From positions 13 to 64,012 of the forward strand of contig JAGVWZ010000009.1 of NCBI GenBank assembly GCA_018304045.1: a DNA stretch of 64,000 nucleotides, given 5' to 3'. The stretch is from Candidatus Pacearchaeota archaeon (GTDB lineage: Archaea; Nanobdellota; Nanobdellia; Pacearchaeales; GW2011-AR1). Shown here in pieces: positions 17,771 to 41,960 of this stretch. Under the pieces are notes generated by a model. That model had not been told where the DNA came from. It did not search any database and was given only the letters and a program-made list of their open reading frames with translations. The position numbers were made by a program, and so were the translations under genes. Position 1 is the first letter of the stretch. Each line of letters starts with the position of its first letter.

Positions 17771-17814
17771 TAAATCATAATTAAGTTTAAAAAGAAAATC
17801 AAGCTGGATTTTTT

Positions 17815-22964: not shown

Positions 22965-23019
22965 ACATATAAATATTTTTAAATGAATAAATAGTTTATT
23001 TTTTAAGAGAAAACAAGAA

Positions 23020-23886: not shown

Positions 23887-23910
23887 AATCACTAAACTTT
23901 TTAGGATTAT

Positions 23911-25074: not shown

Positions 25075-25113
25075 AATAAATATCTTTAAATATAAAATAA
25101 AAAGCATGACATA

Positions 25114-26178
25114 ATGGGAAAAGAGAGTATTCCAGATATGGATTTATGCAAATTAGCATATCATCCAGAAAGAGTTGCTGAATGGAAACAAACAGGCGAT
25201 TGTTTTCCAGTTTATGTGGAAGTTGGACCTACTAATAGATGTAATCATAATTGTATGTTTTGTGCATTGGATTGGGTTGAAAGAGGAGAAATTAGAATTG
25301 ATAAAAAAGTTTTATGTAAAAACTTAGAAGACATGGCTAGAAGTGGCGTGGAATCTGTGATGTTTGCTGGAGAAGGTGAACCACTTGCACATCCAAATGC
25401 ACAAAAATTTGTTCAAGAAGCAAGAAAAAATAATATGGAAGTTTATCTAACAACAAACGGAGTTTTATTAACTAGAAAACGTGTTGAAGAAATTATTCCA
25501 TATTTATCTTGGATAAGATTTAGTGTTGATGCTGGAACAAGAGAATCCTATGGAAAAATTCATAGAACAAGGGAGGAAGACTTTGATAGGGTTTGGAGGA
25601 ATATAGGGGATTGTGTTGATGTTGGAAGAACAAGTACTAGGGGATTCAATGTAAGTGTACAGACTCTTCTTTTATCTGAAAATATTGGGGAAATTGAAAG
25701 ATTAGCAGAATTATGCAAGCAAAATGGTGTGAGCAATCTTCAAGTTAAGCCCTATTCTCACCATCCAGATAGTAAAAATGATTTATCTGTAGATTTGGAA
25801 TCTGCACAGCGGTTGGGTGAAAGATTAAAAAGATTTGAAGATGGAACTTTTAGGGTTTTTTATAGGGGAAAATCTGTTGAAAGACTTACTTCTGAGAAAG
25901 GATATAGCGAATGTTTGGGACTTCCTTTTTTTGCACTTATTGATGCTAGTGGAAATGTTTTACCATGTAATTTGTTTTATGAAAAACCTGAATTTTATTA
26001 TGGAAATATTAATCACCAAATGTTTTCAGAATTATGGAAAGGTGATAAAAGGAAGCAAGTTCTTGAAAGATTAAGACAACAGGGAATAGGAGGTTGTAGG
26101 GATGGATGTAGGCTAGATCCAAGTAATAGATACCTAAGCATAGTAAAAAATCCAGGGGCTTATTACAGGGGATTATGA
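25114..26178 (+). CDS. radical SAM protein (SPASM-like C-terminus)
   Basis: 354 aa. GPTNRCNHNCMFCAL motif; C-terminal CLGLP...PCNLF...GGCRDGC. Its 3' end overlaps the convergent gene by 6 nt. Confidence 0.8.
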   Translation: MGKESIPDMDLCKLAYHPERVAEWKQTGDCFPVYVEVGPTNRCNHNCMFCALDWVERGEIRIDKKVLCKNLEDMARSGVESVMFAGEGEPLAHPNAQKFVQEARKNNMEVYLTTNGVLLTRKRVEEIIPYLSWIRFSVDAGTRESYGKIHRTREEDFDRVWRNIGDCVDVGRTSTRGFNVSVQTLLLSENIGEIERLAELCKQNGVSNLQVKPYSHHPDSKNDLSVDLESAQRLGERLKRFEDGTFRVFYRGKSVERLTSEKGYSECLGLPFFALIDASGNVLPCNLFYEKPEFYYGNINHQMFSELWKGDKRKQVLERLRQQGIGGCRDGCRLDPSNRYLSIVKNPGAYYRGL

Positions 26179-27783
26179 TACTTTTATTTTTCTAATTTTT
26201 GTTTTTAACCTTGCATAACTATCTTTTAATTTTCTTGTTCTACTATAATATCTGTAGGCTAATCTTTGAACTGCACTTACTAAAACAAACCTCATGTGGC
26301 AATCCCTGCAAAATAGATGAAATCCATAGGTAAATTGATTTGATATAAAACAATTTTTGTATTTTATTTCTTTTTTGCAATAGGGGCATTTAACTAATAA
26401 AGTGTATATTTTTGAAGAGGTTTTTTTTATTTTTAATGGACGAACAAATTTTGCATATTTACTAAATAATATAAGAATTGCTCTGTCTAATTCTTTTAAT
26501 TCCTCATTTGTCATTTTGTCAGTCATATTTATTCTTGCATCAGAACCCATTTTATTTTGAATAAAATCTATTTTATCTTTTATTAATCCTTTTTTTACAC
26601 AATGAAAATAAATATCACTTCCAGGATAGGGTTCTACAAAACCCAATGAAATCTGCGCTTGCGCATTTTTCTTCCAATAATTAAGAGTTTCTTTTGCTGT
26701 TTCTTTTGTCTCTGCTATATCACCAAAAATAAAATTTCCCTGAATACCTATTTTTGATTTCAAAGTTTCTTTGAATGCAAAATCTATTTTTTCAGGAGTT
26801 ATTGGCTTTCTCATGCTCTTCAAAACTATTGGAGAAAAACTTTCAAAACCATAGCTAATTATTTCACAACCTGATTCTTTCATTATCTTTAACATTTCTG
26901 CATCAACACTATTTACAATTAATTGGCAATGCCATTTTAATGTTCTTCCTACTTCTTTTGATAAAATTTTTATTTCCTTGCAGAATTCATACAATCTTTC
27001 TTTATTTGCAGAAAAACAATCATCATAAATCATTATATTATTTATATTATATTTTTTAACATTTTCCCTTAGCTCCTTTATTACATCTTTTATTGATCTG
27101 GCTCTAAATCTCATGTCATGCCAGCAAAATGTGCAATTGAATGGACATCCTCTGCTTGCTAAAATTGGATAGGTTCTTGGAAAATCAAATGCTTGAAAAT
27201 TCCAATTTTCATTACAACGCATATTATCTAATTGAATATCAAATCCAATTCCATCAAAATCTGGATATGGAATTGACTCTATATCTTTTATAGGTTCTCT
27301 TGGTTCTGTAAACTTTGCTTTTCCATTTTCCCTGAAAATTATTCCTTTAACTTTTGAAATATTTTTACTTTTGTTTTTAAGTGAATCAACAAGCTCTTTA
27401 ATTGTTTCTTCTCCTTCTCCAAGAACTGCAAAATCTGTTTCCAATGAATTAAACATTAATAATGGTTCACTGGTTATTATTGGTCCACCTGTTACAAAAA
27501 GAGGTTTGGAAGGATGATTATGAACTGTTTTTATTATTGTCTTTAATTGGGCATAGAGAAATGCATTTCCTCCGCTTCCGACTAAACCATACTTTTTTTT
27601 ATCTAAAGTTTTGTGAACTAATTCTTCTACAGTTCCTTTTAGATGATTTAAGTTAACACAATTAACAGAATGTCCTGCTTTTTTTAATGTGGAAGATATG
27701 TAAGCTAAACCAAGTGGGAAATTATAAGAATAATCTGGATTAATACTGTGATTATATTTTGGGATTAATAGCAGTATGTTCAT
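26173..27783 (-). CDS. cobalamin-binding-domain (class B) radical SAM protein
   Basis: 536 aa. TGGPIIT and VLGEGE motifs plus ASRGCPFNCTFCWH. C-terminal CPYC...CRDC zinc-ribbon tail. Confidence 0.8.
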   Translation of the reverse strand: MNILLLIPKYNHSINPDYSYNFPLGLAYISSTLKKAGHSVNCVNLNHLKGTVEELVHKTLDKKKYGLVGSGGNAFLYAQLKTIIKTVHNHPSKPLFVTGGPIITSEPLLMFNSLETDFAVLGEGEETIKELVDSLKNKSKNISKVKGIIFRENGKAKFTEPREPIKDIESIPYPDFDGIGFDIQLDNMRCNENWNFQAFDFPRTYPILASRGCPFNCTFCWHDMRFRARSIKDVIKELRENVKKYNINNIMIYDDCFSANKERLYEFCKEIKILSKEVGRTLKWHCQLIVNSVDAEMLKIMKESGCEIISYGFESFSPIVLKSMRKPITPEKIDFAFKETLKSKIGIQGNFIFGDIAETKETAKETLNYWKKNAQAQISLGFVEPYPGSDIYFHCVKKGLIKDKIDFIQNKMGSDARINMTDKMTNEELKELDRAILILFSKYAKFVRPLKIKKTSSKIYTLLVKCPYCKKEIKYKNCFISNQFTYGFHLFCRDCHMRFVLVSAVQRLAYRYYSRTRKLKDSYARLKTKIRKIKVS

Positions 27784-27838: not shown

Positions 27839-29464
27839 TTAATTGGAGAAAGCCTTTATTTTATTCTTTTTATCTTGGTCTTTTAAGTTTTTTATTATTG
27901 CCTGCAGGATAAATTTATTTCCAGATAATATCTTAAACAAAAGAGCTATTGGATAAAGCGTAAAGAATTTTTTTTGCAACTTTAATGAAAGTAGTTGAAA
28001 AAGAAAAATAAACTCAAAAGATTTTTTCATTGTTTCATAATCTTTCGCACTTATCTTCTTTAGTCTTAATAAAGGAAAAGAAATAAATGCTGTGTTTTCT
28101 TTATTAATAAAGTCTATTATTTTTCCATTATATATTTCTTTTATAAAATCTAAATTATTAATAAAAAAATCTTTGGTCATCATTATTTGACTAAGATCAA
28201 GAAATGAATTAAAATCTTCTTTTGAAAGAGTATTCATTGTTGTGTCCCACTTAAAATAAAGATAATCCCCTAGGTATTTTGAATTGACATAATAATTACA
28301 ACAGCTTATTTGTTTTTTTGTTTTTTCCAGTGAATAGATTTGAAGATATTCTCTAAATTCCATGTCTTCTGAATTTTTTGTTTTAAAGTATATATAATCA
28401 AAATCTTTTATTTTTTCAATTATTTTTTCTTTTTCTTTTTTTAAATCTTCAACTGATAATGAAATTGCTTTGTGTCTTATTTTTGGAAGATTATTGTGTC
28501 TTATTTTTGGAAGACTGGTTATTATTTTATCTAGGTCTTTGTCCAAAGAATAGGTACTTCTTATTTTTTTATAAGTAATATTTGCTATTTTTTCTCTTTC
28601 TTTTTCATGTTTAAGATAATAATTTATTTTTTCAAGCAAATCCTCTCTATCTTGGTACATGATTATTTCTTTTCCTTCTTTGAGCAAGCGAGGATATTCA
28701 TCACAATATCCTGTAAGAACAAAGGTTTTACAAGAACTCCCTTCAAAGAACTTTCCTTTCATATGCGGAATTCCAAAATGATTATGAGAAAAACATAGAG
28801 TAATCTTACTTTGATTTATTACTTCTACCATTTTATCAGAGTCTAGTGCTCCTTTGTATATTTCCTTAAATTCTGGATAATTATCCCATCCCCATCCAAA
28901 AAGAGTTAATTTAACTCCTTTATCTTTTAGAAATTTTATTAATTCATATCTTTCAGACTCACTTGTTTTTGGATGACCTATAAAGGTTACATCATATTCT
29001 TTTTTTAAGTTTAAATGTCTAAAATACTTGGTATTAAGTCCTAAGGTAAAGAAAATGTTTTTAATCCCATCTTTTTTATACTCTTTTAAATATTTTCTTT
29101 GAAATACTAATCCTAAATCTAAAAATAATATATAGTATCTTGAAAATGCTTCAAATGCAGCATCATCATCTCCAAAATATAACATTGTTTTTGTATTAGG
29201 CGAAATCTCCCTAATCTTTAACAAAGTACTAAGATAGAATTCTTCGTTTCTCACACACATAAAAATAAAATCTGGTTTTTCTCGTTCAACTACCTCAAGA
29301 AACATCTGATTCATCTTATCTTTTCCATATTTGAAGTAGTTAAATTTAGGGTCAAAGGCAATAAGATTATTGCAATGTCTTTCTAGGGCAAGATACCAAT
29401 TAGGATAAAGAAAATAATACTTATTAGGAGTCTCTGCGAATAGAATTTTATTTACCTTTTTCAT
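27839..29464 (-). CDS. CgeB/DUF3880-like glycosyltransferase
   Basis: 541 aa. The central region (DVTFIGHP..., KGKFFEGSSCKTFVLTG) resembles CgeB-family GT-B proteins. Contains an in-frame 24-nt duplication (LPKIRHNN/LPKIRHKA). Confidence 0.55.
   Translation of the reverse strand: MKKVNKILFAETPNKYYFLYPNWYLALERHCNNLIAFDPKFNYFKYGKDKMNQMFLEVVEREKPDFIFMCVRNEEFYLSTLLKIREISPNTKTMLYFGDDDAAFEAFSRYYILFLDLGLVFQRKYLKEYKKDGIKNIFFTLGLNTKYFRHLNLKKEYDVTFIGHPKTSESERYELIKFLKDKGVKLTLFGWGWDNYPEFKEIYKGALDSDKMVEVINQSKITLCFSHNHFGIPHMKGKFFEGSSCKTFVLTGYCDEYPRLLKEGKEIIMYQDREDLLEKINYYLKHEKEREKIANITYKKIRSTYSLDKDLDKIITSLPKIRHNNLPKIRHKAISLSVEDLKKEKEKIIEKIKDFDYIYFKTKNSEDMEFREYLQIYSLEKTKKQISCCNYYVNSKYLGDYLYFKWDTTMNTLSKEDFNSFLDLSQIMMTKDFFINNLDFIKEIYNGKIIDFINKENTAFISFPLLRLKKISAKDYETMKKSFEFIFLFQLLSLKLQKKFFTLYPIALLFKILSGNKFILQAIIKNLKDQDKKNKIKAFSN
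28470..28517 (-). repeat. 24-nt in-frame tandem duplication
   Basis: ttgtgtcttatttttggaaga occurs at 28470 and 28494 and encodes LPKIRHNN-LPKIRHKA. Confidence 0.85.
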
Positions 29465-29600: not shown

Positions 29601-30731
29601 ATGAGAATAGAATTTGGAGATTTAAAATTAGGTGAAAGTGCAAGAAGGCATATTGATGATGTTCTAAGAACAAGTTGGGTTTCTGCAGGTCCAAAGGTTG
29701 CTGCATTTGAAGAAGGATGGGGAAAATTATTTGGATATAAACATAATGTTGCAATGGATAATGGAACAAGTGCTGATATGGCTTGTTGCATGACTCTTTA
29801 TGATTTAGTGGGGGCTGAGAGGGGGGATGAAATAATTGCTCCGGCTCTAGCTTTTGCAGCTGTTGGAAATTCTATTGTTGCTGCAGGATTTAGGCCTTCT
29901 TTTGTTGATGTTAGGAAAGAAACATTAAATATTGATGCAACAAAAATTGAAGAAAAAATAACTCATAGAACAAGAGCTATAATAGCGGTTCATACAATGG
30001 GAAAACCATGTGCAATGGATCCTATAATGGAACTTGCAAAAAAATATGGATTAAAAGTAATTGAAGATTCTTGTGAAGCTCATGGTGCAAAATATAATGG
30101 AAAATATGTTGGACATTTCGGAGATATGGCTGCTTTTAGTTTTTATGCTGCTCATCTTATATGTTGCGGAGAAGGGGGAATGGTATCTACAAATGATTCG
30201 CAGGTAGCAGAATTATTAAATTCAGTTAGATCTCATGGAAGAAAACCAGATAGTTTATATTTTGATCACTTAAGATTTGGATTAAATTTTAAAATGAATG
30301 ATTTGGAAGCTGCAATTGGACTTTCTCAAATAGAGCAATTCAGAGAAATATTTGATACAAGAAAAAAGAACCTTCTTTATCTAATGGATAGGACACTGGA
30401 TTTACAAGATATTGCATATTTTAATACAGAATCTCCAAATGAAGAAGTAACTGCTCATGCATTTAGTGTTACATTAAAAGACCCTAAATTAGATGCTCAA
30501 AGATTAGCTGAATTTTTAGAATCAAATGATATAAAATGTAAAAGAAATTTTGGAAGCATGCCGACTCAACATAGGGCTTTTGAATTCTTAGGTCATAGAT
30601 TAGGGGAATTTCCAGAGGCAGAATATATTGGAAACAATGGGATTCATTTTGGTTGCCACCAATATTTAACAAAAGATGATTTGGATTTTGTTTCTGATAA
30701 ATTACATGAATATTTTGCAACAGCTAGATAA
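29601..30731 (+). CDS. DegT/DnrJ/EryC1-family PLP/PMP enzyme, ColD/E1-like nucleotide-sugar 3-dehydratase candidate
   Basis: 376 aa with a family-typical N-terminus and DNGTSA. The active-site stretch is SFYAAHLICCGEGG, with His185 (30153-30155) where aminotransferases of this family carry the Schiff-base Lys. Confidence 0.8.
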   Translation: MRIEFGDLKLGESARRHIDDVLRTSWVSAGPKVAAFEEGWGKLFGYKHNVAMDNGTSADMACCMTLYDLVGAERGDEIIAPALAFAAVGNSIVAAGFRPSFVDVRKETLNIDATKIEEKITHRTRAIIAVHTMGKPCAMDPIMELAKKYGLKVIEDSCEAHGAKYNGKYVGHFGDMAAFSFYAAHLICCGEGGMVSTNDSQVAELLNSVRSHGRKPDSLYFDHLRFGLNFKMNDLEAAIGLSQIEQFREIFDTRKKNLLYLMDRTLDLQDIAYFNTESPNEEVTAHAFSVTLKDPKLDAQRLAEFLESNDIKCKRNFGSMPTQHRAFEFLGHRLGEFPEAEYIGNNGIHFGCHQYLTKDDLDFVSDKLHEYFATAR

Positions 30732-30867
30732 AATAAGATTATTCTTTAAGTTTGATTATTGTTAATGTAAAAAGTATATAAAATAATTACAAGTAATTAT
30801 TAATATCAATTAGATATAGGCTTAAAATGTAGGATATTAAGCTAAATATTTAATAAAAATATTAGGA

Positions 30868-32892
30868 TTATTCTTTTGGAGTCCAGACTTCTACTCCTCT
30901 TGAATCAAATCCAAAATCCATTGGCTCCCCTCCTTCATTTCTTAATGCTCTTGATAATCTGTTCCTATATTCAGATGGATGATAAAATAAAAGATAGCCT
31001 CCTCCTCCAGAACCTAAAAGTTTTCCTCCAGATGCTCCTGCCTTTATTCCTGATTCATACAAATGATCAATTTCTGGATTAGAAATTCCTTGACTCATCT
31101 CTCTCTTGTATTTCCAAGACTCATGGAGCAATTCCCCTATTCCTTGAAGATTTCCTGTTAACAAAATATCTTTAATATTTATTGCAATATCTTTTAGTCT
31201 TCCTAATTTTAAGGCAACTTCTTCTTCATCCATTGCTCTTTCTAATACTCTTTGCTGAGTTCCTGAAAAATGTTGTTTTCCAACATAGCAGAGAGTTAGA
31301 TGGGATTCTAATTCCCGAATTGTTGTTTCTTTTAATCTTAAAGGGTAGATTATTCTTCTATCTTTACTAAATTCCATGAAATTAAATCCTCCTGTTGATG
31401 CTGCATATTGATCTTGTAATCCCCCTGGAATACCTAATTCATCTCTTTCAGCACGATAGGCAATATCTGCAACTTTACTATCTGCATATTCTACTCCTTG
31501 TAATTGGCTAATAAGTTTAGCTAATAGCACTGCTAAGCTTGCAGAAGAACCAAGGCCTCTTCCAGGAGGAATATCATTGGAAAGATGAAGATCTAACCCA
31601 AAATTAGGATTCATTAATTTTACAACTGCTTTTACTAAATCAAAATTACCATCATAGTTCATTTTTCTTGGATCAAATACAAATTCACTATCACAAAAAT
31701 CAGAATCTATAACTATTTTAGAATCTGCTCTTTTTCTTGCTGTTCCATGGCAATATTTATTTATGGTTGTGCTTATGACCACGCCTCCGTACTTTTCAAA
31801 ATAATTTGGAAGATCTGTTCCTCCTCCTGAAAAACTTATTCTTAAAGGAGATTTTCCTCTGACAATAGGGAATGCATTTGGTTCTAATTCTTCAGATCTA
31901 AATCTTATGTCAACTAATGTCCCCTGATTATCTATAACTGGAAGATGTCGTGTTCCTGAAAGGAGCATTTGATGTATTTGTTCTTCTGTATAACCTTCTC
32001 TTGCTACTTTCTCAAGATCAGTTATCATTGCTTGAGAAACAGGAGCATCTATATTTCCTCCTTGGGTTAAATATAACCTTGCGATTCTGTCATTAAAACT
32101 TCCTAAAAGTTTTTTATCTGGACCAACAATCAATACTGATTCTTTTCCTCTTTCTGCCATTAATGTCCATGCATCTCTCACACTTAATCCTGGAGAAATC
32201 ATAAAGTCATCTAAACTATCTCTTTTAAATTGAGCATAGGTTTCTGGCCTTCCTATGTCTATAAAATATCCATCATCAACGCAACCAAATAATCTTCTTT
32301 CATTTGCTAATCTTGGAAAAACTTCTCTTTCTAAAGAAGAATTTACTTCAGGAGACATATAATCAAATATTTCCGGAGTAAAAACATAAACACCTCTATT
32401 AATTAATCCTGGTTGACTCTTAGTTTTTTCAATAAAATCAACAACATTATCTCCATTTAAAATAACTTGGCCATAGTGAGAAGTATCTGGAGAATTAAAA
32501 AGGCCCATTGTTGCAATTCCTCTTTTAGATGCATGAAATTCTAAAAAACTTTTTAAATCTATTTTAGAAAAAGAATCTCCATTTAAAACTAAAAAATCTC
32601 CTTGATGATACCTTTCTGTTTTTTTAATTGCTCCGGCAGTTCCAAGAGGAGTTTCTTCTTCAGAATAGGTTATGTCCACACCCATTTTTTTTCCATTGCC
32701 AAAATAAGATTTTATTGTGTCAGCCATGTAGTGAACACAAAGCACAATGTCTTCAATACCTTGTTCCCTAAGCCATCTTATTTGATGTTCAAGAAATGGT
32801 TTTCCTGCAATCAATGCCATTGGTTTTGGCACATCTCTGACTACTTCTCTTAATCTTGTTCCAAATCCTCCTGCAAGAATCATTGCTTTCAT
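30868..32892 (-). CDS. trifunctional-architecture protein: sugar-1-P nucleotidyltransferase + CBS pair + GHMP sugar kinase (HddC/HddA-like)
   Basis: 674 aa. N-terminus MKAMILAGGFGTRLR (NTP_transferase), a central CBS pair, and a C-terminal PLRISFSGGGTDLP plus PPGRGLGSSASLAV (GHMP, COG2605-type heptose/fucose kinase). Confidence 0.85.
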   Translation of the reverse strand: MKAMILAGGFGTRLREVVRDVPKPMALIAGKPFLEHQIRWLREQGIEDIVLCVHYMADTIKSYFGNGKKMGVDITYSEEETPLGTAGAIKKTERYHQGDFLVLNGDSFSKIDLKSFLEFHASKRGIATMGLFNSPDTSHYGQVILNGDNVVDFIEKTKSQPGLINRGVYVFTPEIFDYMSPEVNSSLEREVFPRLANERRLFGCVDDGYFIDIGRPETYAQFKRDSLDDFMISPGLSVRDAWTLMAERGKESVLIVGPDKKLLGSFNDRIARLYLTQGGNIDAPVSQAMITDLEKVAREGYTEEQIHQMLLSGTRHLPVIDNQGTLVDIRFRSEELEPNAFPIVRGKSPLRISFSGGGTDLPNYFEKYGGVVISTTINKYCHGTARKRADSKIVIDSDFCDSEFVFDPRKMNYDGNFDLVKAVVKLMNPNFGLDLHLSNDIPPGRGLGSSASLAVLLAKLISQLQGVEYADSKVADIAYRAERDELGIPGGLQDQYAASTGGFNFMEFSKDRRIIYPLRLKETTIRELESHLTLCYVGKQHFSGTQQRVLERAMDEEEVALKLGRLKDIAINIKDILLTGNLQGIGELLHESWKYKREMSQGISNPEIDHLYESGIKAGASGGKLLGSGGGGYLLFYHPSEYRNRLSRALRNEGGEPMDFGFDSRGVEVWTPKE

Positions 32893-32940
32893 TTAGTAAG
32901 ATATCTTTTATGACATATTGAGTTTTTCAGTCATTTTGAA

Positions 32941-33873
32941 TTAGAAATTTTGAACCGCAGCTATTACTGATTGTTCATCTATTCCAGCTGCTCTATGCAA
33001 TGCATCTCTTCCATATTTGTAAATATATTTGTCGTTTATTCCAATTCTTTTAAGTTGAGTTGGAAGCCTGTTATCACAAATTGCTTCTGCAACAATACTT
33101 CCAAGTCCTCCTGCAAGAAGATGTTCTTCTAAGGAAACAACTCTTTTGTATTGAGAAAGTGCTTGTACAAATTCAGGCGATATTTGTTTTGGCCTGTATA
33201 AATCAATTACTCCAACATCTAAATTTCCTACTTTTGATGCTACATCAAGTGCTCTATGAACCATGTTTCCTGTTGAAACAATTGCTAAATCACTTCCTTT
33301 TCTTAATTCTGCAAAACCTTGATTTACATCTTCATCATCACCATAGATTAAAGGTACTTTTTGTCTTTCTAATCTTAAATAACATGGATGTTGAGAATTA
33401 TAGGTATATCTAGCACATTTTCCAGCTATAACACTATCTGAAGGAGAAAGGATTTCAAGTCCTGGTAAGGCTCTCATTATGCTTATGTCCTCTGTTGTAT
33501 GGTGAGTTGGTCCTGAATCTTCATAGCCAAAGCCAGCTCCAACACCAATTAATGTTAAAGGAGTTTTCATTAAACTTGCATCTACTTTTGTAAATTCATG
33601 ACATCTTGAAGTTATGAATGGTGCAATTGCATAAGTATAAACTTTTTTTCCTTCATTTGCAAGTCCTGTTGCAACAGCAATCATATTATGTTCTGCAATT
33701 CCAACATTGATAAATCTATTTCCAAAATCTCTTCGAAATCTATCTAGTGCAGGAGCACCCATGTCTGCTGATAAAACCATTACATGTGGATCTTCTCTAG
33801 CTATCTCATAGAGATTCATAAAAAAAGCATCTCTCATTGATATATTTTTTAAAGATATTTTCTCGTCGCCCAT
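32941..33873 (-). CDS. transketolase, C-terminal (pyrimidine-binding) subunit
   Basis: 310 aa with FINVGIAEHNMIAVATGLA. Overlaps the N-subunit gene by 25 nt. Confidence 0.9.
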   Translation of the reverse strand: MGDEKISLKNISMRDAFFMNLYEIAREDPHVMVLSADMGAPALDRFRRDFGNRFINVGIAEHNMIAVATGLANEGKKVYTYAIAPFITSRCHEFTKVDASLMKTPLTLIGVGAGFGYEDSGPTHHTTEDISIMRALPGLEILSPSDSVIAGKCARYTYNSQHPCYLRLERQKVPLIYGDDEDVNQGFAELRKGSDLAIVSTGNMVHRALDVASKVGNLDVGVIDLYRPKQISPEFVQALSQYKRVVSLEEHLLAGGLGSIVAEAICDNRLPTQLKRIGINDKYIYKYGRDALHRAAGIDEQSVIAAVQNF

Positions 33874-34724
33874 CTTTGTACCTCCTCTGAATATTCTCCT
33901 AATTGTCCTTTTGCTTTAACACCTTCTTCTCCAAGAGGAGCTAGTCCATGCCATCTTGCAACACTTTCTATAAATTCAATTCCTTTACCTTTTACTGTGT
34001 CTGCTACTATTGCTAATGGTTTTTCTGTTTTTCTAGTTCTTACATCTTCAAGAGCACTACAAATTTCTTCTATTGAATGTCCATTAATTTTTCTAACATC
34101 CCAGCCAAAGGATTTAAATTTTTCATCAAAAGGATTAAGTTTTACAATTTCTTCTGTTGCACCCATCACTCCATATCCGTTTCTGTCTACAATTGCAGTT
34201 AAATTATTTAATCTATGGTGAGCAGCAAACATTGCAGCTTCCCAAACAGAACCTTCATAACATTCTGCATCACCCATTAAAACAAAAGTATGATAATCTT
34301 TTAAACCCATTTTTGCAGCAAGTGCAACTCCAGAACCAATTCCTAATCCATGGCCTAGAGAACCCATGGTGTATTCTACTCCAGGAATATCTCCTTGTAA
34401 GTGAACTCCAAAATGACCTTCTCCTGTTGCAAAACCATCTAGCCAATCTTTTGGAAAAAAACCTAAATCAGCTAATACATTATAGAGTATGGGACTTGCT
34501 TGGCCTTTGCTTAAAATAAATCTGTCTCTATCTTCCCATTTTGGATTTTGTGGATCATACCTCATAATTCCTCCTTGATAAAGTGCTGTTAAGAGTTCTG
34601 CACAGGAAAAAGAAGAAGTTACATGCCCTGTCCTGGCCCTTATACACATGTCAAGAGTATTTTGACGAATCTCATTTGTTTTTCTATAAAGATCTGCTAT
34701 TTTAGGTCCAGGTATATTACTCAT
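33849..34724 (-). CDS. transketolase, N-terminal (ThDP-binding) subunit
   Basis: 291 aa with GHVTSSFSCAELLTALY, GSLGHGLGIGSG and LMGDAECYEGSVWEA motifs. Confidence 0.9.
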   Translation of the reverse strand: MSNIPGPKIADLYRKTNEIRQNTLDMCIRARTGHVTSSFSCAELLTALYQGGIMRYDPQNPKWEDRDRFILSKGQASPILYNVLADLGFFPKDWLDGFATGEGHFGVHLQGDIPGVEYTMGSLGHGLGIGSGVALAAKMGLKDYHTFVLMGDAECYEGSVWEAAMFAAHHRLNNLTAIVDRNGYGVMGATEEIVKLNPFDEKFKSFGWDVRKINGHSIEEICSALEDVRTRKTEKPLAIVADTVKGKGIEFIESVARWHGLAPLGEEGVKAKGQLGEYSEEVQRWATRKYL

Positions 34725-34794
34725 TTTTTATTCACTAATTTTATTAAATCAGAAAAATATTGTTTTTAAAGATTGTTAGTCAAAATAATATATA

Positions 34795-36264
34795 TTAATC
34801 TTCTAAAATTCTCCTTTTTATTCTTGTTTTTGTCATTAATTCAATATGTTCCCTTGCTGGAATACCAAATTTTCTTTCAATCATTGCTAAATAATCAGGA
34901 TTTGTAAAATATTTATTAAATGCATTATCTCTAAATCTTAGTACTTCTGCTGCACTTAAAAAATTTGTTGGAAGTGGTTTGCAATCATAGGAATGTTGAG
35001 AATATCCTATCCAAGAATCTGGAAGAGCTACTCCTCTTTGCACTGCATCTGAAAATAATTGAGAACCTGGGTAGGCCATTGCACAATAAAGATTTACAAA
35101 TTCACAATTTAATTCTTGTGCAAAATCTAATGTTTCTTGCATTGTTCCTTGTGTATCTTCTGGAAATCCAAACATATAATTTCCAATAATATTAATTCCA
35201 TTATCTCCAACTACTTTTCTTACTTTTCTTATATCGTCTTTTAGAAATCTTCCTTTTTGAGCATGTTGTCTTACTTCATCATTTCCAGCTTCAAATCCAT
35301 AGCAGAACCAATTAAAACCAGCTTCTTTTAATTTTTTTAAATGAGCTTCTTGAGTTGTGTCTACTCTTGAATATGCCCAGATATTTAAATCAAGTCCTCT
35401 TTCTTGAATTCCATCACAAATTCCAACATAATGTTTGGGATTAAACAAAAACATTTCATCAATTATTTTTATCACTTCTACACCATATTTTTCTTGCAGA
35501 GTAGTTAATTGATTTACAACCCATTCTGGACTCCAATTTCTTATTCTGTGTTCTCCTCCAAAAGTTGCACTAATTGAACAGAAATTACATTCGTATGGAC
35601 AACCCATGCTTGTTGAAATAGAAGCATATTTTTTTCTAGATTCAAAATCATCTAAGCACTGCCAATTATGTGCTTTATATCTTCCCATAGGTAATAAATC
35701 CCAGGCAACATCTCCTAATTCTCTTGTTAAATCAGATATATTTGCAGCACGAGGATTACTTTGTATTAATCCCCTATCTTTCCACCATAGTCCTGGAATT
35801 TCCCTTAAGGGTTTAGATTGCAATAATCCTAATACTGTATTAAATCCTTCTCCTTCTCCAACATAATCGCAGGCTTCTTCTTCAAGAGTTCTTCTTGGAA
35901 GAGCTGATGGATGCAATCCTGTTAATAATATTCTTCTGTGAGGATTTGTTTGTTTTATTTGTCTGCATAATTCTCCTACGCTTCCCATTAATTGAGTCGA
36001 TGCTGCTGGTTGCTGACCATAGACTACAATATTTACTAATTGTGGATCATAATCTTCTACTCTTTCAACACTTTCTTCCATTGATAAATTTTCAGCATTT
36101 GCATCTAAAATTTTTGGATCAAAACCTCTTTGTCTTACAAAACCTGCTGTTAGTGCTTGCCAAAAAGGAGGTTCTATTGCAGAATAGTCTTTACTTAATT
36201 CCTGATAAACTTTTTTCTTAGCTCCGCCAACATTTATTAATAATAAATCTAATTTTTTTGTCAT
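34795..36264 (-). CDS. cobalamin-binding-domain (class B) radical SAM protein
   Basis: 489 aa. N-terminal LLINVGG...VVYGQQP, LTGLHPS and VGEGEG, plus SMGCPYECNFCSI. Confidence 0.85.
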   Translation of the reverse strand: MTKKLDLLLINVGGAKKKVYQELSKDYSAIEPPFWQALTAGFVRQRGFDPKILDANAENLSMEESVERVEDYDPQLVNIVVYGQQPAASTQLMGSVGELCRQIKQTNPHRRILLTGLHPSALPRRTLEEEACDYVGEGEGFNTVLGLLQSKPLREIPGLWWKDRGLIQSNPRAANISDLTRELGDVAWDLLPMGRYKAHNWQCLDDFESRKKYASISTSMGCPYECNFCSISATFGGEHRIRNWSPEWVVNQLTTLQEKYGVEVIKIIDEMFLFNPKHYVGICDGIQERGLDLNIWAYSRVDTTQEAHLKKLKEAGFNWFCYGFEAGNDEVRQHAQKGRFLKDDIRKVRKVVGDNGINIIGNYMFGFPEDTQGTMQETLDFAQELNCEFVNLYCAMAYPGSQLFSDAVQRGVALPDSWIGYSQHSYDCKPLPTNFLSAAEVLRFRDNAFNKYFTNPDYLAMIERKFGIPAREHIELMTKTRIKRRILED

Positions 36265-36314
36265 TGGTTTATATCTCCTTAGTTAGTTAAAAACATTATT
36301 ATAATTATTTGTTA

Positions 36315-37280
36315 TCAAAGACTTGGATCATTTCTACAATAGTCTAACAAATGATTAACACTTTGTTCAAAAGTATACCTTGGTTTCCAACCTGTTTCTC
36401 TTCTAAACTTAGTTGTATCTGGAATTTGTAAAGTTACATCTGTAGGCCTAAGAAGTTTTGGATCGATTCTTGATGGAATTGGGCATTTTGCTAAACTTTT
36501 TAAAACATCTAAAAATTCTCCTACTTTAATTACAGTATCTCCCCCTATATTATATACTTCTCCTGGTTTTCCTTTTTCAGTAGCATACCAATAGGATTCC
36601 ATTGCATCTCTAACATCAATCATTGTTCGAACAGAATCAAGATTACCATGTAATAATTCTGGTTGATGCCCTCTTTCAATCCTGACAACCTGTCTTGCAA
36701 ATGCAGTTGAAAATAAATCAGTTCTTCTTGGATTTAAATAAGAAAACATCCTTGTCCTGATAACATTTAAACCATAATTCTCATAATAAACACTGCCGAG
36801 TAAATCCTGTGTTGTTTTTGAAACAGCATAGGGATTTGCAGGAGCTATTGGACATTCTTCTATGATTGGAACATTTTCAGGTTTAACAAGACCATATACT
36901 TCAGAAGTACTGCATAATTGAATTATTGGATGAATATCTGTACATTTAATTGCTTCTAAAAGATTTGCAGTTCCCATTATATTATTTTGTAAAACTGAAA
37001 GTGGAACATCAAAACAAGCTCTTACATTTGCATGTGCTGCTAAATGAAAAATATAATCTGGATTTATTTCATTTAATCTCCTGAATACTGAACTAAAATC
37101 ATTTAAATCACATTCATGAACCTGAACTTTATCTGCAATTGCTTCAAGATTTTTATTAGAAGTAGTACTATGCCATCTTGAAATCCCATGCACTTCTATT
37201 TCTGGATGACTTTCAACAAGATATTCTGCAAGATAGCTTCCTCCAGAACCTGTTATTCCAGTTATTAACGCCCTTTTCAT
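36315..37280 (-). CDS. NAD-dependent nucleotide-sugar 4,6-dehydratase/reductase (GDP-mannose 4,6-dehydratase family)
   Basis: 321 aa with ITGITGSGGSYLAEYL (GxxGxxG), CSTSEVYG and the YAVSK catalytic dyad. Confidence 0.8.
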   Translation of the reverse strand: MKRALITGITGSGGSYLAEYLVESHPEIEVHGISRWHSTTSNKNLEAIADKVQVHECDLNDFSSVFRRLNEINPDYIFHLAAHANVRACFDVPLSVLQNNIMGTANLLEAIKCTDIHPIIQLCSTSEVYGLVKPENVPIIEECPIAPANPYAVSKTTQDLLGSVYYENYGLNVIRTRMFSYLNPRRTDLFSTAFARQVVRIERGHQPELLHGNLDSVRTMIDVRDAMESYWYATEKGKPGEVYNIGGDTVIKVGEFLDVLKSLAKCPIPSRIDPKLLRPTDVTLQIPDTTKFRRETGWKPRYTFEQSVNHLLDYCRNDPSL

Positions 37281-37362: not shown

Positions 37363-38937
37363 TTAGTGATTTGTGAGACTTAATAATTTTCTTTTAATTG
37401 AATTAAATATCATAAAATCATTTTTATCAAAACATCCAGTAAATAGTATTAAAATAATATAAGCTATTGCAAAGGTAATACCTATAATTAACAGAATAAA
37501 TAGATTTACACTTATAACTTTACTTATAATATAAACTGGAATCACCAATATCATTGTGACTATGAAAATCTTTATCATATCTCTTTTAAATGGAATTATT
37601 GAAATATAATGTCTCACTTGTAACACTAACAATATATTAAATATGATGACAGATATCATTGTTGCAATTGCTGCACCTGTGATTCCATAGGAATTATCAA
37701 TAAATCCTATTGTTTTCATAGGAATCAATATAAGGTTTAAAACTAAATTAATAACAGACGCGAGGATTATATCAAATAAAATAAGTTTTGATTTTCCAAT
37801 CATTAACAGAAGATTATTAGATATTGAAAATAGAGAAAAGAACAGGCATGATATTGAAAGGAATCTAAGGGCATTTTCAGCAACTAAATATTCTGGCCCA
37901 AATAAAATGTTAATAAATACTCCTGGAAAAAGAATTATTAAGACAAGCATTGGAAGGTTGATTATCCAAACCCATTTTCCTACTTGTTTGCTTAGGTCTT
38001 CAATCAAAGATAATTTTTTTTGAGAATAATACTTTGTTACTAATGGAAAAAAAAGCTGAATAAAAATTTCTGAGGATAGCGTGAGTATTGCAGCTATTGG
38101 AAGTGCAGCATTATAAAACCCTACTTCTCTTACTCCTTTAAAATATCCTATTAAAAAAGAATCAATCCAATAAAAGAGACTTGAAACAACTCCAAAAAAC
38201 ATTATTGACCAAGAATATGAAAATAAATTTTTGAATAGTTTTTTTCCTTTTTCCCCTAAATTTGATTTTTTGAATATTTCTGGAAATTTGAATTTGCAAT
38301 AAAAATAAGCTGATAAAAATACTATCAGAGTTCCGATAAAAAATGAAGAAATAACTGCCCCATTTTTTAATCCTATCCATATTAATAAAGCAAGCACTAT
38401 TAATTTTGAAGCATTTTGAACAATATTGAATATGAAAGAGTATGCTGAAATTTTTTCATAGGCGCGTATTATTGCTAAAAAAAGACTTGAAAAAATCCAT
38501 ATTGGCAAAAGAATGCTAAAAATTCTAAGATAAATTATTAATTCTGAATTATGAAATATATTAATAGAAAGATATCTAGAAAACAAAAACAATAGAACTG
38601 CTGCTGAAATTGAAGAAATTAATAATATTAGTGATGTTTTTCTAAAAAGATGATTTATTTTACCCTTGCTATTCTTTAATCTATAAAAAGAAATATATCT
38701 TAATAATCCTTCTGCAAGACCTAATGAAAAAAATGCTGCAAACAATCCTAAAATCATAGACGCTAAAGAAAAAAGACCATATACTTCTGAGCCTAAATAT
38801 CTTGCAATCAGTATTCTATAAAGATATGTTACTACCTTGGATATAACTATTCCAAAAAATACTATAAAAGATGTTTTTACTAATAATTTTAAAGAATCAT
38901 CCAGTGCTATTGCTTTATTTTTTTTTGTTTCTTTCAT
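37363..38937 (-). CDS. MOP-superfamily polysaccharide flippase (Wzx-like)
   Basis: 524 aa, about 14 TM. Typical polysaccharide biosynthesis protein topology. Confidence 0.8.
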   Translation of the reverse strand: MKETKKNKAIALDDSLKLLVKTSFIVFFGIVISKVVTYLYRILIARYLGSEVYGLFSLASMILGLFAAFFSLGLAEGLLRYISFYRLKNSKGKINHLFRKTSLILLISSISAAVLLFLFSRYLSINIFHNSELIIYLRIFSILLPIWIFSSLFLAIIRAYEKISAYSFIFNIVQNASKLIVLALLIWIGLKNGAVISSFFIGTLIVFLSAYFYCKFKFPEIFKKSNLGEKGKKLFKNLFSYSWSIMFFGVVSSLFYWIDSFLIGYFKGVREVGFYNAALPIAAILTLSSEIFIQLFFPLVTKYYSQKKLSLIEDLSKQVGKWVWIINLPMLVLIILFPGVFINILFGPEYLVAENALRFLSISCLFFSLFSISNNLLLMIGKSKLILFDIILASVINLVLNLILIPMKTIGFIDNSYGITGAAIATMISVIIFNILLVLQVRHYISIIPFKRDMIKIFIVTMILVIPVYIISKVISVNLFILLIIGITFAIAYIILILFTGCFDKNDFMIFNSIKRKLLSLTNH

Positions 38938-38995: not shown

Positions 38996-40561
38996 CTATC
39001 TCTCCTTGCTCAATTTCTCTAAAGTTAAATACAAACTTAATAAAAAATTTCTGTTATCTGATTTTATATAAAACATTTCCCTAGCACCCATTCTATCAAA
39101 ACTCTTGCAGAATCTTTCATAGTATTCTGGATTGGTTTTATTTGGTTCTAAATTTTTTCCAAAATCCCAACTAGATGCTTTAATATCATTTACTACTATT
39201 AAAAAATCATTTATAGTTTTATTATCTTGGAGTTTAGTATTTCTTGCCATTGAAAGAGCTTTTTCAAAAATCATTGGGGACATAATTGCAGAGCCTATTG
39301 AAATATAAACCCCTCCTTCTAAATTAGAAACACTTTCTACAAATTTCAGAAAATCAATTTCAGAAGTTTTTCCTATTGAAGCTCCATCTGATAATGGATG
39401 AGTATAAATTATATCATATCCAAATCCTGGATGTATTGTAAATGGTATTTTATTAAAAAATGCAGATTCTTGTATACTAAACTGTTTAAATGGATGAATT
39501 AATTTGAAGTTTTCTGTTATTTTATGGTTTTTTAATTTATTTAATAGAGAGATATTATTTATTTCTGGAATTATTATTTCTTCTTTATGAATCATCTCTC
39601 CTATGGATTCACCATAACCTTTTTCCCTTAAAGCTCCGGATATTAATGCAAGATTAATGTATTTTCCTGTTTCTTCCCAGATTCCAAATTGACCTGAGAT
39701 GATATTTTCCCTTACATCTTCTTCTGATTTTCCAATGAATGAAAATTCCCAATCATGAATTGAACCTGCTCCGTTTGTGGCTAAATGTGTAACATATCTT
39801 TTTTCAATCATTTTTCTTAATATAGGAGAAAGTCCATTTTTAATTAAATGAGCTCCAAAAGCTATAATTATAGATTTATTGTTCTTCTTTGCATCTAAAA
39901 TATTTTCAGCCATAATCTCTATTTTTTTATCATCTATTAAATCAAAATTCTCATATTTATCTTCATTCATTGCTATCTTAATTATGTCAGATTTACTTTT
40001 CCTTTCTAAAATAGATTTAAATTTTATTTTTTCTCGATTAAATAATTTATTATTCAGAATTACCTTTGAACATTCAAGTAAATCTTTGAATTTTTTTAGA
40101 TTATCCTCTTTATTATATTTTGAATCAATTAATAGGGTTCTACACCCTGCAGTTTCTCCCATTTCAATGTCTTTTAATTTATCCCCAATCATCCAGGATT
40201 CTCTTAAATTAATAGAATAATCTTTTTCAGCTTGTTTAAGAAAGAGAATGTTTGGTTTTCTACAGATACAATTTTCTTCTGGAGAATGTGGACAAAAATA
40301 AACTTTTTCAATAATTATTTTTTCTTTTTTAAATATTTCTAACATATGTTCATTTAATTTATTAAATTCATCTAGAGAATAATATCCTCTCCCTATTCCA
40401 GATTGATTTGTTACTATAAATAATTTGAAGCCATTTGATTGCAGAATTCTTAGGGATTCAAAAACATTTGGAAGAAACTCAAAATCTTGAATTTTTGAAA
40501 CATAACCTGTGTCCTTATTTATAACCCCGTCCCTATCCAAAAATACAGCCTTATTTTTCAT
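38996..40561 (-). CDS. gmhB: D,D-heptose 1,7-bisphosphate phosphatase (GmhB, HAD-IIIA) fused to an uncharacterised ~330-aa C-terminal domain
   Basis: 521 aa. N-terminus AVFLDRDGVINKD, TNQSGIGRG, CPHSPEENCICRKP and GDKLKDIE. The C-terminal domain (GAHLIKNGL...HLATNGAGSIHDWEF) has no assignment I can make. Confidence 0.75.
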   Translation of the reverse strand: MKNKAVFLDRDGVINKDTGYVSKIQDFEFLPNVFESLRILQSNGFKLFIVTNQSGIGRGYYSLDEFNKLNEHMLEIFKKEKIIIEKVYFCPHSPEENCICRKPNILFLKQAEKDYSINLRESWMIGDKLKDIEMGETAGCRTLLIDSKYNKEDNLKKFKDLLECSKVILNNKLFNREKIKFKSILERKSKSDIIKIAMNEDKYENFDLIDDKKIEIMAENILDAKKNNKSIIIAFGAHLIKNGLSPILRKMIEKRYVTHLATNGAGSIHDWEFSFIGKSEEDVRENIISGQFGIWEETGKYINLALISGALREKGYGESIGEMIHKEEIIIPEINNISLLNKLKNHKITENFKLIHPFKQFSIQESAFFNKIPFTIHPGFGYDIIYTHPLSDGASIGKTSEIDFLKFVESVSNLEGGVYISIGSAIMSPMIFEKALSMARNTKLQDNKTINDFLIVVNDIKASSWDFGKNLEPNKTNPEYYERFCKSFDRMGAREMFYIKSDNRNFLLSLYLTLEKLSKER

Positions 40562-41960
40562 TGTTTTCTTTTATTTTTTTAATTGTATTTGTTGTGGATT
40601 TGTTTGGGACGTTAATGCCTAAGATTATTTTTCCATTATAACTTTCAACTACTTTTCTTTCTTCTTGATTTATGGTGTTTATATTGTAATCCCCCCCTTT
40701 AACATAGAAATCTGGTTTTAATATTGCTAAGTAATCCTTAACACCTTGATAGGGATATATGATAACATAGTCTATAAATCCCATTCCAGCAAGTATTTCT
40801 GCTCTGTCTAATTCTGTGTTGATTGGTCTTTCAGGACCTTTTAATCTTCTTATAGAATCATCAGAATCTATTCCCACAATTAAAATATCTCCTAATTTTT
40901 TTGCTTCTTTTAAATATTTTAAATGACCTATGTGGAGAATATCAAAACATCCATTGGTCCAAACTATTTTTTTATTTTTTATTTTATAATCATGAACGAG
41001 TTTTTTTAGTTCTTCTAATTCAACAATTTTTCTTTCTTTAGATGCAATCCTACTCCTTAATTCACTTAATAATACTGAATAGGTTCCTTTTTTTTCAACT
41101 GCTATTCCTGCTGCATAGTTTGCAATTATTGCTGCTTCTTCCAAAGAAGCTTTTGAAGAAATTGCTAATGAAAGTGTGGCTATGACTGTATCTCCTGCAC
41201 CGCTAACATCATAAACCTCTCTTGCAAAAGTAGGAATCTCCACTAAATTTTCTTTTGAAAAAATAAGCATTCCTTTTTCACCTATAGTAATAAGTATGTT
41301 TGAATCTAATTCATCCATTAATTTTTTTCCAGCTTCTTTTATATCGCTTAGTCCTGTCATTTCTTTTGCTTCTTTTTCATTTGGTTTTATTAAAAAAAAT
41401 CCTTTAAAGAGATGAATGTGTTTTGGCTTAGTATCTACTATTGTTTTTGATTTAAAGGGGAAGATTAAATCAACTAAATCTTTTGTTATTGTTCCTTTGA
41501 GATAATCAGAGACTATTATAATATCTGATTTTTCTGCTTCGCTTAATATTTTTTTCTTTGTTTCTTTTGAAAAAAATTTTTCATTTATATCTTCTTGATC
41601 CATTCTTATTATTTGCTGATTTTTGCAACAAATTCTTGATTTGGTTATTGTTGAATGATTTTCATCCAAAGAACAATTAATATTCTTTTCTTTACATAAT
41701 TTTTTTAATATTTCTGCATGATTATCTTTTCCAACAAAAGCAAATAAAGTAACATTTCCTTTTAATGAAACTATATTTGAAGCTACATTTCCAGAACCAC
41801 CTAAATCATAGGTTTCATCAGTTACATTTAAAATTGGAACTGGTGCTTCAGGACTAATCCTTGAAATATTTCCATAGACATATTTATCTAGAATTAAATC
41901 TCCAATTACTAATATTTTTTTATTTTCAAAACTTGACATTATTTTATCAAAACCATTCAT
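40551..41960 (-). CDS. hldE: bifunctional heptose 7-P kinase / heptose 1-P adenylyltransferase (HldE/RfaE)
   Basis: 469 aa. PfkB kinase domain (ILVIGDLILDKYVYG, GAGDT) plus cytidylyltransferase fold (TNGCFDILHIGHLKYL). Confidence 0.9.
   Translation of the reverse strand: MNGFDKIMSSFENKKILVIGDLILDKYVYGNISRISPEAPVPILNVTDETYDLGGSGNVASNIVSLKGNVTLFAFVGKDNHAEILKKLCKEKNINCSLDENHSTITKSRICCKNQQIIRMDQEDINEKFFSKETKKKILSEAEKSDIIIVSDYLKGTITKDLVDLIFPFKSKTIVDTKPKHIHLFKGFFLIKPNEKEAKEMTGLSDIKEAGKKLMDELDSNILITIGEKGMLIFSKENLVEIPTFAREVYDVSGAGDTVIATLSLAISSKASLEEAAIIANYAAGIAVEKKGTYSVLLSELRSRIASKERKIVELEELKKLVHDYKIKNKKIVWTNGCFDILHIGHLKYLKEAKKLGDILIVGIDSDDSIRRLKGPERPINTELDRAEILAGMGFIDYVIIYPYQGVKDYLAILKPDFYVKGGDYNINTINQEERKVVESYNGKIILGINVPNKSTTNTIKKIKENNEK

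Follow-up and report, generated by a model that had tools for sequence, protein, structure and literature searches.

Genes for a predicted GDP-linked 3,6-dideoxy-heptose, and possibly for its carbon branching, in a surface-glycan island of a Candidatus Pacearchaeota archaeon

What sugar does an archaeon make with a gene block that pairs a DegT-family protein lacking the catalytic lysine of its family with a transketolase split over two genes? The 64-kb stretch of DNA analysed here (the window, ~30% G+C) raises this question, since its DegT protein, 100% identical to one annotated from Candidatus Pacearchaeota, a DPANN archaeon, is encoded beside a short-chain dehydrogenase/reductase (SDR), a split transketolase-like enzyme dependent on thiamine diphosphate (ThDP), a radical S-adenosylmethionine (SAM) enzyme with a B12-binding domain (B12-rSAM) and genes for heptose precursors. 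We consider it somewhat better than an even bet that the minus-strand operon running from 42511 to 30868, together with the DegT gene divergent from it, is the local version of a widespread GDP-heptose-modifying cassette that works by the steps set out below. Judged from its sequence, the gene set very probably makes a GDP-linked 3,6-dideoxy-heptose, to which a carbon branch may then be added by a dedicated transketolase-like enzyme, a step for which we have circumstantial support. Open reading frame (ORF) calls and Pfam searches recovered every ORF named in a first-pass annotation of this stretch, each in its place and with the domain family proposed for it.

The DegT-family gene (29601-30731, plus strand; Pfam DegT_DnrJ_EryC1, PF01041, 310 bits) is predicted to encode a sugar 3-dehydratase dependent on pyridoxamine 5'-phosphate (PMP). 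Its product contains the peptide SFYAAHLICCGEGG, in which residue 185 is His, as read from the codon CAT at 30153-30155 of the plus strand. In an HMMER alignment His185 falls on Lys186 of C. crescentus GDP-perosamine synthase, whose K186A entry 3dr4 differs from the wild type at exactly that column, and it likewise falls on His220 of E1, where the H220K mutant entry 3bb8 differs; at the catalytic column wild-type E1 reads SFYPAHHITMGEGG, the H220K mutant ...AKH... and the window protein SFYAAHLICCGEGG. The comparison with ColD runs through an orthologue of it at a related locus (452 bits to 2gms), which matches His188 to His185 and seats ColD Ser187-His188 on Ala184-His185 of the window. The His185 column is invariant in a 22-sequence alignment, and of the 120 database homologues closest to the protein (61-100% identity) 116 retain the "AH" motif, the other four being sequences in which the regular expression found no match. 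The first-pass annotation had placed His at the column of the Schiff-base Lys, and all three comparisons agree; a catalytic Lys elsewhere in the motif, by which aminotransferase chemistry might be rescued, was looked for and none is present, and that candidate was rejected. An AlphaFold model of the protein (predicted local distance difference test, pLDDT, 85) gave Foldseek TM-scores of 0.90 to E1, 0.85 to perosamine synthase and 0.83-0.86 to ColD, so that alignments and fold comparison alike support the reading of the protein as one of the 3-dehydratase type. In sequence it shares only 27-32% identity with these three proteins, and for this reason we treat it as a separate clade.

It strikes us as very improbable that the protein has remained an aminotransferase, or has become an inactive paralogue, with the change from Lys to His being without mechanistic effect. 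By raw score, perosamine synthase and further aminotransferases do rank among its closest solved relatives (185 bits), and its identity to ColD and E1 reaches only 27-30%, but neither the catalytic position nor its neighbours hold a Lys, the His does not vary within a large clade that is clearly under purifying selection (53-75% identity across phyla), and in related cassettes the same slot is taken by bona fide orthologues of ColD and E1. ColD gains aminotransferase activity only when Ser187 and His188 are both changed (S187N/H188K), and the structure of this double mutant is among the structure matches.

Of the two enzymes for which such a His is the hallmark, ColD and E1, the former provides the better guide to mechanism. 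Among NCBIfam models the window protein matches RfbH/E1 best (237 bits, cut-off 423), with PseC essentially tied. In the alignment, E1 residues ~250-281 have no counterpart in the window protein, which has no Cys there; this is the segment of E1 that holds three of the four cysteines of the 2Fe-2S cluster (Cys251/253/261). Nor was a ferredoxin-, FNR-like or E3-type reductase gene found among the ORFs scanned. With the Fe-S loop missing and no reductase partner among the scanned ORFs nearby, a ColD-type PMP mechanism is most likely for the window protein, and the E1-type mechanism, with its Fe-S cluster and E3 reductase, was rejected. The ColD mechanism has been described on GDP-heptose, where glutamate regenerates PMP and the enamine is released and hydrolysed (PMC10440746).

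We note separately that the clade of window-type DegT proteins conserves cysteines at C63, C137, C158, C188/C189 and C313, the Cys-Cys pair starting three residues past His185. Conserved cysteines of this kind could form an alternative Fe-S site; in His-type relatives at 40-45% identity these five positions, the pair included, are not kept.

Within the block the DegT protein is paired with a DmhA-like SDR, the putative maker of a nucleoside diphosphate (NDP)-4-keto sugar. This SDR (36315-37280, minus strand) resembles GDP-heptose and GDP-mannose 4,6-dehydratases (GDP_Man_Dehyd-type, Pfam PF16363, 236 bits), and its best solved relative is 7us5, the Campylobacter jejuni GDP-D-glycero-D-manno-heptose 4,6-dehydratase DmhA, at 202 bits. 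It carries the catalytic motifs CSTSEVYG (STSE) and YAVSK, and among NCBIfam models it scores 161 bits with gmd (cut-off 415) as compared to 102 bits with galE. By these scores the protein appears to group with the GDP-sugar 4,6-dehydratases, as the first-pass annotation had it, and not with GalE.

The same protein could also be read as a 4-reductase of the RMD type, or as a dehydratase/reductase with both functions, in which case either the cassette's own dehydratase would be missing or C4 would be reduced by the same enzyme. The match to RMD (2pk3) stands at 200 bits and is tied with that to 7us5, the SDR has the same length as RMD (321 aa), and some GDP-mannose dehydratases are bifunctional. 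A pairwise alignment nonetheless shows that an "RW" loop (query residues ~35-50) is common to the window SDR and DmhA and deleted in RMD, the dehydratase T-S-E motif is present, and the DegT enzyme requires a 4-keto sugar when only one SDR is encoded in the 64 kb. We regard this reading as quite improbable. A tblastn search for a second SDR found none in the window, and a single SDR fits a pathway that dispenses with a C4 reductase because in the proposed route C4 would become a tertiary alcohol.

The first-pass annotation had also suggested that the scaffold might be a heptose, and this is borne out by the company that the nucleotidyltransferase/kinase gene keeps: an HddC/HddA-like fusion, it shares its operon with GmhA, GmhB and HldE. 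The fusion (30868-32892, minus strand) joins a sugar-1-phosphate guanylyltransferase to a heptose-7-phosphate kinase of the GHMP family through a CBS domain (Pfam NTP_transferase, CBS, GHMP_kinases_N/C), and its NCBIfam matches are HddA at 235 bits (cut-off 600), HddC at 174 (cut-off 300) and mannose-1-phosphate guanylyltransferase at 194, all of them below cut-off; an orthologous HddC-CBS-HddA fusion adjoins the His-type DegT gene in 17 related loci. On the same strand lie a GmhA-like sedoheptulose-7-phosphate isomerase (41957-42511; Pfam SIS_2; NCBIfam 179-189 bits and below cut-off, 179 as against 209), an HldE-like heptose-7-phosphate kinase/heptose-1-phosphate adenylyltransferase of the ADP-heptose route (40551-41960; NCBIfam HldE 424 bits, cut-off 521) and a GmhB-like heptose bisphosphate phosphatase (38996-40561; TIGR00213, 153.5 bits, cut-off 149.6). 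By best NCBIfam match GmhA, HddA, GmhB and HddC are thus all encoded here, and they recur jointly in related cassettes. The GmhB protein is itself a fusion, to a GSU2086-family domain (NF052581, 311 bits, above the cut-off of 250). We also observe that an ADP-heptose route (HldE) and a GDP-heptose route (the HddC-CBS-HddA fusion) stand in one operon, which implies two differently activated heptoses.

The genes of the block recur in company well beyond the window. A scan anchored on the His-type DegT gene, with one genome per species, gave 40 loci with orthologues 53-69% identical, labelled as Pacearchaeota, Woesearchaeota, Nanoarchaeota, Methanoperedens, ANME-1, candidate phyla radiation (CPR) bacteria, Chloroflexi/Dehalococcoidia, Myxococcaceae and other Proteobacteria. 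When the ORFs of these loci were labelled from BLAST comparisons with proteins of the window and with neighbours annotated by Pfam, a recurrent operon emerged that comprises GmhA, GmhB, a GFS-like SDR, a ThDP enzyme in some, an SDR that we call type B, a B12-rSAM, HddA, HddC and the His-type DegT protein. In the 25 loci whose flanks reach 7 kb or more on each side, HddA and a 4-keto-forming SDR (type A, the DmhA-like form, or type B) each lie near the DegT gene in 21, a ThDP enzyme of any kind in 17 and a B12-rSAM orthologue in 13. A metagenome scan anchored instead on the C-terminal subunit (TK-C) of the cassette transketolase gave 80 loci, and in the 24 with at least 4 kb on both sides the neighbours were HddA (23 loci), type B SDR (19), HddC (18), B12-rSAM (16) and a DegT protein that was of the His type in 18 and of the Lys type in one. 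Altogether this transketolase clade is found in operons with HddA/HddC, a 4-keto-forming SDR, B12-rSAM and a His-type 3-dehydratase at more than 60 archaeal and bacterial loci.

The DegT genes that adjoin cassette transketolases have His at the catalytic column in 29 of 31 cases, and they fall into three lineages, namely the window type, true ColD orthologues (452 bits to 2gms) and an E1 type with a CxCx7C loop, the latter two being only 25-32% identical to the window protein. Three lineages of 3-dehydratase thus appear to have converged on the same partner. At one locus (L110, 4619 region) an E1-type 3-dehydratase with an intact Fe-S motif, DCWCETGTDNTC, adjoins a cassette-type transketolase and a B12-rSAM, so an Fe-S-dependent variant also occurs in the cassette.

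The type B SDR lacks the dehydratase Glu (its motif reads TNSGYG) and is ~58% identical (335 bits) to PDB entry 6vo6, which we take to be Cj1427, the C. jejuni GDP-heptose C4-dehydrogenase, an assignment that the molecule name of the entry matches. Its orthologues are present in most related cassettes and absent from the window. Because the nearest relative of the window carries a type B SDR (L001:13212-14156) where the window has its DmhA-like type A, the two types seem to fill the same slot, that of making the 4-keto sugar. This suggests that most cassettes lead to a 3-deoxy-4-keto-heptose and that the present one leads to the 3,6-dideoxy form.

The slot of the ThDP enzyme is filled in four ways: by the window type; by a type with the pattern RHIDH, which is related to the window type and has lost His26 and His100; by pairs resembling the alpha and beta chains of pyruvate dehydrogenase E1 (PDH-E1), identified with YRSHG, GDGA..EG and EDNG; and, at L017 and L028, by an acetolactate synthase (ALS)-like enzyme. 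In the window the enzyme is split into an N-terminal (PP) subunit, TK-N (33849-34724, minus strand; Pfam Transketolase_N), and the C-terminal (Pyr + C) subunit, TK-C (32941-33873, minus strand; Pfam Transket_pyr/Transketolase_C), of a non-canonical transketolase-like enzyme. The TK-N subunit, whose best solved relative is 6yak (244 bits), has GQASP instead of GHASP and GDA (GDA...N) instead of GDG. With residues mapped via the Carboxydothermus hydrogenoformans enzyme and given in E. coli numbering, TK-N has H26, Q66, H100, D155 and H261, and TK-C has R358, A385, E411, G461, S469, H473 and R520, as compared to the canonical pattern RSEHDHR. The window enzyme has thus exchanged His66 for Gln, Ser385 for Ala, His461 for Gly and Asp469 for Ser, and has retained the cofactor-activating Glu411 and the ThDP/Mg motif. 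In transketolase from yeast and E. coli all four of these residues belong to the substrate channel, where the phosphate of the substrate is bound by His461 and Ser385 and the C2 hydroxyl of the acceptor by Asp469; Asp469 and His461 are also positions that protein engineers have mutated to change the acceptor range. Gly461 is found, along with Ser or another residue at position 469, in nearly all cassette TK-C subunits, and only 3-4 of 93 sequences have the canonical RSEHDHR pattern; of the residues typical of transketolase, the window enzyme retains more than do most members of its clade. The identity of the window TK-C is 41-43% to that clade as against 31% to canonical split transketolases, whose C subunits are 54% identical among themselves.

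These observations bear on a simpler scheme, in which the locus would specify a GDP-3,6-dideoxy-heptose pathway without branching, like that of C. jejuni HS:5, the transketolase would only supply sedoheptulose-7-phosphate to an archaeon that lacks a pentose-phosphate pathway, the B12-rSAM would serve another sugar of the island and a C4 reductase would be encoded elsewhere. Such a supply role was the first working idea. It agrees with the 244-bit match of TK-N to a characterised split transketolase, with the conservation of His26, His100 and His261 in that subunit and of Arg358, His473 and Arg520 in TK-C, and with the fact that GmhA requires sedoheptulose-7-phosphate, while the C. jejuni pathway shows that the steps ahead of the proposed branching yield a usable sugar by themselves (PMC10440746). 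Against it, the enzyme belongs to a cassette-specific clade apart from the canonical split transketolases and has lost the equivalents of His66, Ser385, His461 and Asp469; two loci (L031, from Methanoperedens, and L123) carry a canonical split transketolase and a cassette-type pair in the same operon; elsewhere the slot is taken by PDH-E1-like or ALS-like enzymes, which are incapable of making sedoheptulose-7-phosphate; the cassette also occurs in genomes labelled Myxococcaceae, Chloroflexi and Proteobacteria, groups expected to own a pentose-phosphate pathway; and the window has no second SDR. The idea was downgraded in the light of the clade analysis, the residue patterns, the dual-transketolase operons and the PDH-E1-like cassettes, and we now hold it to be unlikely, if the most serious of the alternatives. 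Because of the clade separation, the residue losses and the operons with an extra canonical transketolase, we favour a role of the cassette enzyme on the modified sugar rather than in mere sedoheptulose-7-phosphate supply. The first-pass annotation had named the split transketolase as a candidate two-carbon donor for branching; comparative genomics bears out a non-canonical clade dedicated to the cassette, which may carry out the branching. A literature search for transketolases in heptose polysaccharide clusters found nothing.

Several points weigh against our reading of the locus as a cassette for branching a GDP-heptose. Besides the near-tie of the SDR with a 4-reductase, the window enzyme keeps His26, His100, His261, His473, Arg358 and Arg520, so it may still carry out ordinary ketose-phosphate chemistry, and DPANN archaea are often without a pentose-phosphate pathway. 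Among the heptose-pathway matches GmhB alone passes its NCBIfam equivalog cut-off, about one third of the His-type DegT loci have no ThDP gene within 10 kb, and the gene for a C4 reductase could lie beyond the window. Co-occurrence, moreover, speaks for a shared pathway and says nothing of the order of its steps or of the acceptor.

With these points in mind, we envisage the cassette pathway as follows. The DmhA-like SDR, whose T/S-x-E and YxxxK residues are in place, would convert GDP-heptose to GDP-4-keto-6-deoxy-heptose. The His185 DegT protein, holding PMP non-covalently, would then remove the 3-hydroxyl by the ColD route to give GDP-4-keto-3,6-dideoxy-heptose; PMP would be regenerated from L-glutamate, and neither an Fe-S cluster nor an E3 reductase would be used. 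Both reactions have precedent, in that C. jejuni enzymes perform 4-keto formation and C3 dehydration on GDP-heptose in vitro (PMC10440746, PMC10680097). On comparative-genomic grounds, the split transketolase-like enzyme might next transfer a two-carbon acyl-anion unit to the C4 carbonyl, giving a branched sugar with a tertiary alcohol, in a step analogous to that of YerE in yersiniose formation and to that proposed for the split transketolases of miharamycin biosynthesis. Known or proposed ThDP families for keto-sugar branching are YerE-like enzymes, alpha-KADH2 and split transketolases (PMC12247030), the chemistry of YerE and ErwE having been described (PMC9306805); a 2025 review regards branching by split transketolases as unproven, and the 13 candidates that it lists all belong to the secondary metabolism of Streptomyces, with none characterised in vitro (PMC12247030). 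The adjacent B12-rSAM may change the product further, by C-methylation or by radical chemistry like that of AprD4 or HpnJ, and the neighbouring glycosyltransferase, Wzx and AglB would place the sugar onto a surface glycan. Extended to uncultivated archaea (DPANN, Methanoperedens, ANME-1) and to bacteria (CPR, Chloroflexi and others), the proposal, for which the literature searched gave no characterised counterpart, would be that a dedicated transketolase-derived ThDP enzyme C-branches GDP-3-deoxy- or GDP-3,6-dideoxy-4-keto-heptose and that a B12-rSAM remodels the branch, a generalisation that we offer tentatively and to which we give rather less than even chances.

The B12-rSAM that is the cassette partner (34795-36264, minus strand; assigned by Pfam) has the motif CPYECNFC at residue 222. 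Among NCBIfam models HpnJ matches it best (169 bits), and the closest solved structure, that of the diol dehydratase AprD4, scores only 72 bits; a literature search for a radical SAM enzyme acting with GDP-heptose found nothing. It is one of five paralogous B12-binding-domain radical SAM genes in the island (10872-12245, 12966-14558, 19581-21056, 26173-27783 and 34795-36264), which together with three other radical SAM genes lie inside ~32 kb, a density unusual for a glycosylation locus.

The first-pass annotation had offered a second candidate two-carbon donor, the ALS-like ThDP enzyme encoded at 17815-19584 (plus strand; NCBIfam ALS 408 bits, cut-off 538). Here the evidence leads elsewhere. 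The gene lies in a conserved module of eight genes (16595-26178, plus strand; Pfam, NCBIfam), a neighbour of the DegT cassette and not demonstrably part of it, whose order is Asp-aminotransferase-like, ALS-like, B12-rSAM, APH-like, PHP, radical SAM, Gtf3_C-like (387 aa) and radical SAM/SPASM. Because the same eight genes recur contiguously at L045, with the last three reordered and away from any His-type DegT gene, we assign the ALS-like gene to a separate module. Its homologues of at least 49% identity are numerous, with fusions to radical SAM/SPASM domains (e.g. P0146, P0185) and one to an aminotransferase (P0191), and the gene is often near heptose genes; it is adjacent to a His-type DegT gene in only two of 41 related genome loci (L017, L028). 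We therefore rejected the ALS-like protein as the default two-carbon donor of the DegT module.

The cassette is embedded in a surface-glycan island that spans ~2.1-42.5 kb of the window and contains an STT3/AglB oligosaccharyltransferase, a GT4 initiating transferase, a Wzx flippase and many glycosyltransferases and methyltransferases, in addition to the radical SAM genes. The Wzx-type flippase (Pfam Polysacc_synt) is encoded at 37363-38937 on the minus strand, and a 541-aa Glyco_trans_1_2 protein (27839-29464, minus strand; Pfam), orthologues of which (35-46% identity) lie near the His-type DegT gene in 12-16 related loci, is a candidate transferase for the modified sugar. After the island follow genes for SecD/F, Dus, an ABC transporter, an RNA polymerase subunit and ribosomal proteins. 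One further ORF of 1003 aa (60710-63721, minus strand) has no Pfam match.

The 3,6-dideoxy-heptose part of this scheme is not new chemistry and resembles a known Campylobacter route, whereas the cassette, taken in its entirety, represents a variant of deoxy- and branched-sugar biosynthesis that has not been described. To our knowledge, a few Campylobacter capsules are the sole natural source from which 3-deoxy- and 3,6-dideoxy-heptoses have been described, and GDP-3-deoxy-heptoses have been prepared in vitro alone; we know of no such deoxy-heptose, nor of a ThDP-branched sugar, described from archaea. The cassette is found in dozens of uncultivated lineages, with three independent lineages of His-type 3-dehydratase and a transketolase-like clade with an altered substrate channel. 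If our proposal is correct, it would add to cell-surface glycans a class of branched sugars not known before, of higher carbon number (C9 or larger), and provide the first tractable natural system for asking whether transketolases accept sugar ketones. Transketolase branching is directly testable because its predicted substrate can already be prepared enzymatically, and if it were shown, new carboligases for tertiary alcohols might become available.

How, then, does the cassette compare with known systems? With ColD (WbdK) and the GDP-heptose C3-dehydratases of C. jejuni HS:5 and HS:11, the window DegT protein shares the DegT fold, His in place of Lys, the absence of an Fe-S cluster, a predicted GDP-linked 4-keto-6-deoxy substrate from an SDR of the GMD/DmhA type and, presumably, the recycling of PMP with L-glutamate. 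It is only ~27% identical to ColD, it has Ala184-His185, as E1 does, where ColD has Ser187-His188, and it belongs to a distinct clade of archaea and uncultivated bacteria; its partners are a ThDP enzyme and a B12-rSAM, whereas those of ColD are a C5 epimerase and a C4 reductase. E1 (DdhC/RfbH) is its best NCBIfam match (237 bits) and gives the top TM-score (0.90), with His220 equivalent to His185 and a local motif, SFY-AH-I--GEGG, that is identical in the two proteins. Unlike E1, the window protein is without the ~30-residue Fe-S segment, has no E3-type reductase gene nearby and scores far under the 423-bit cut-off.

The GDP-3,6-dideoxy-heptose route is already known biochemically in C. jejuni (PMC10440746), and Raushel's group has made GDP-3-deoxy-heptoses in vitro with analogous enzymes of that organism (PMC10680097). 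With the C. jejuni GDP-6-deoxy- and GDP-3,6-dideoxy-heptose pathways (PMC10680097) the window shares the precursor logic of GmhA, HddA, GmhB and HddC and an SDR that best matches DmhA, and sister cassettes come close to C. jejuni in an SDR ~58% identical to 6vo6 and in a GFS-like reductase. The differences are that the present system is archaeal or environmental and depends on Wzx and AglB rather than a kps capsule, that a CBS domain joins its kinase and nucleotidyltransferase into one protein, and that the window has additional ThDP and B12-rSAM enzymes and no epimerase or reductase. The canonical split transketolase of C. hydrogenoformans (6yak/6yaj) has the same two-gene architecture, ThDP/Mg motif, Glu411, His26/100/261/473 and Arg358/520, and differs from the window enzyme in that the latter has Gln66, Ala385, Gly461, Ser469 and GDA for GDG, the canonical C subunit being 31% identical. 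Finally, YerE/ErwE (ALS-like), alpha-KADH2 (PDH-E1 alpha/beta-like) and the split transketolases proposed for miharamycin and amipurimycin resemble the cassette in coupling a ThDP gene to genes for a 3-deoxy-4-keto NDP-sugar. All three families interchange in this one cassette, the window enzyme being the split-gene transketolase; while CDP- or TDP-hexoses are the source of the branched sugars known so far, the predicted scaffold here is a GDP-heptose, in surface-glycan loci of archaea, CPR bacteria, Chloroflexi and others.

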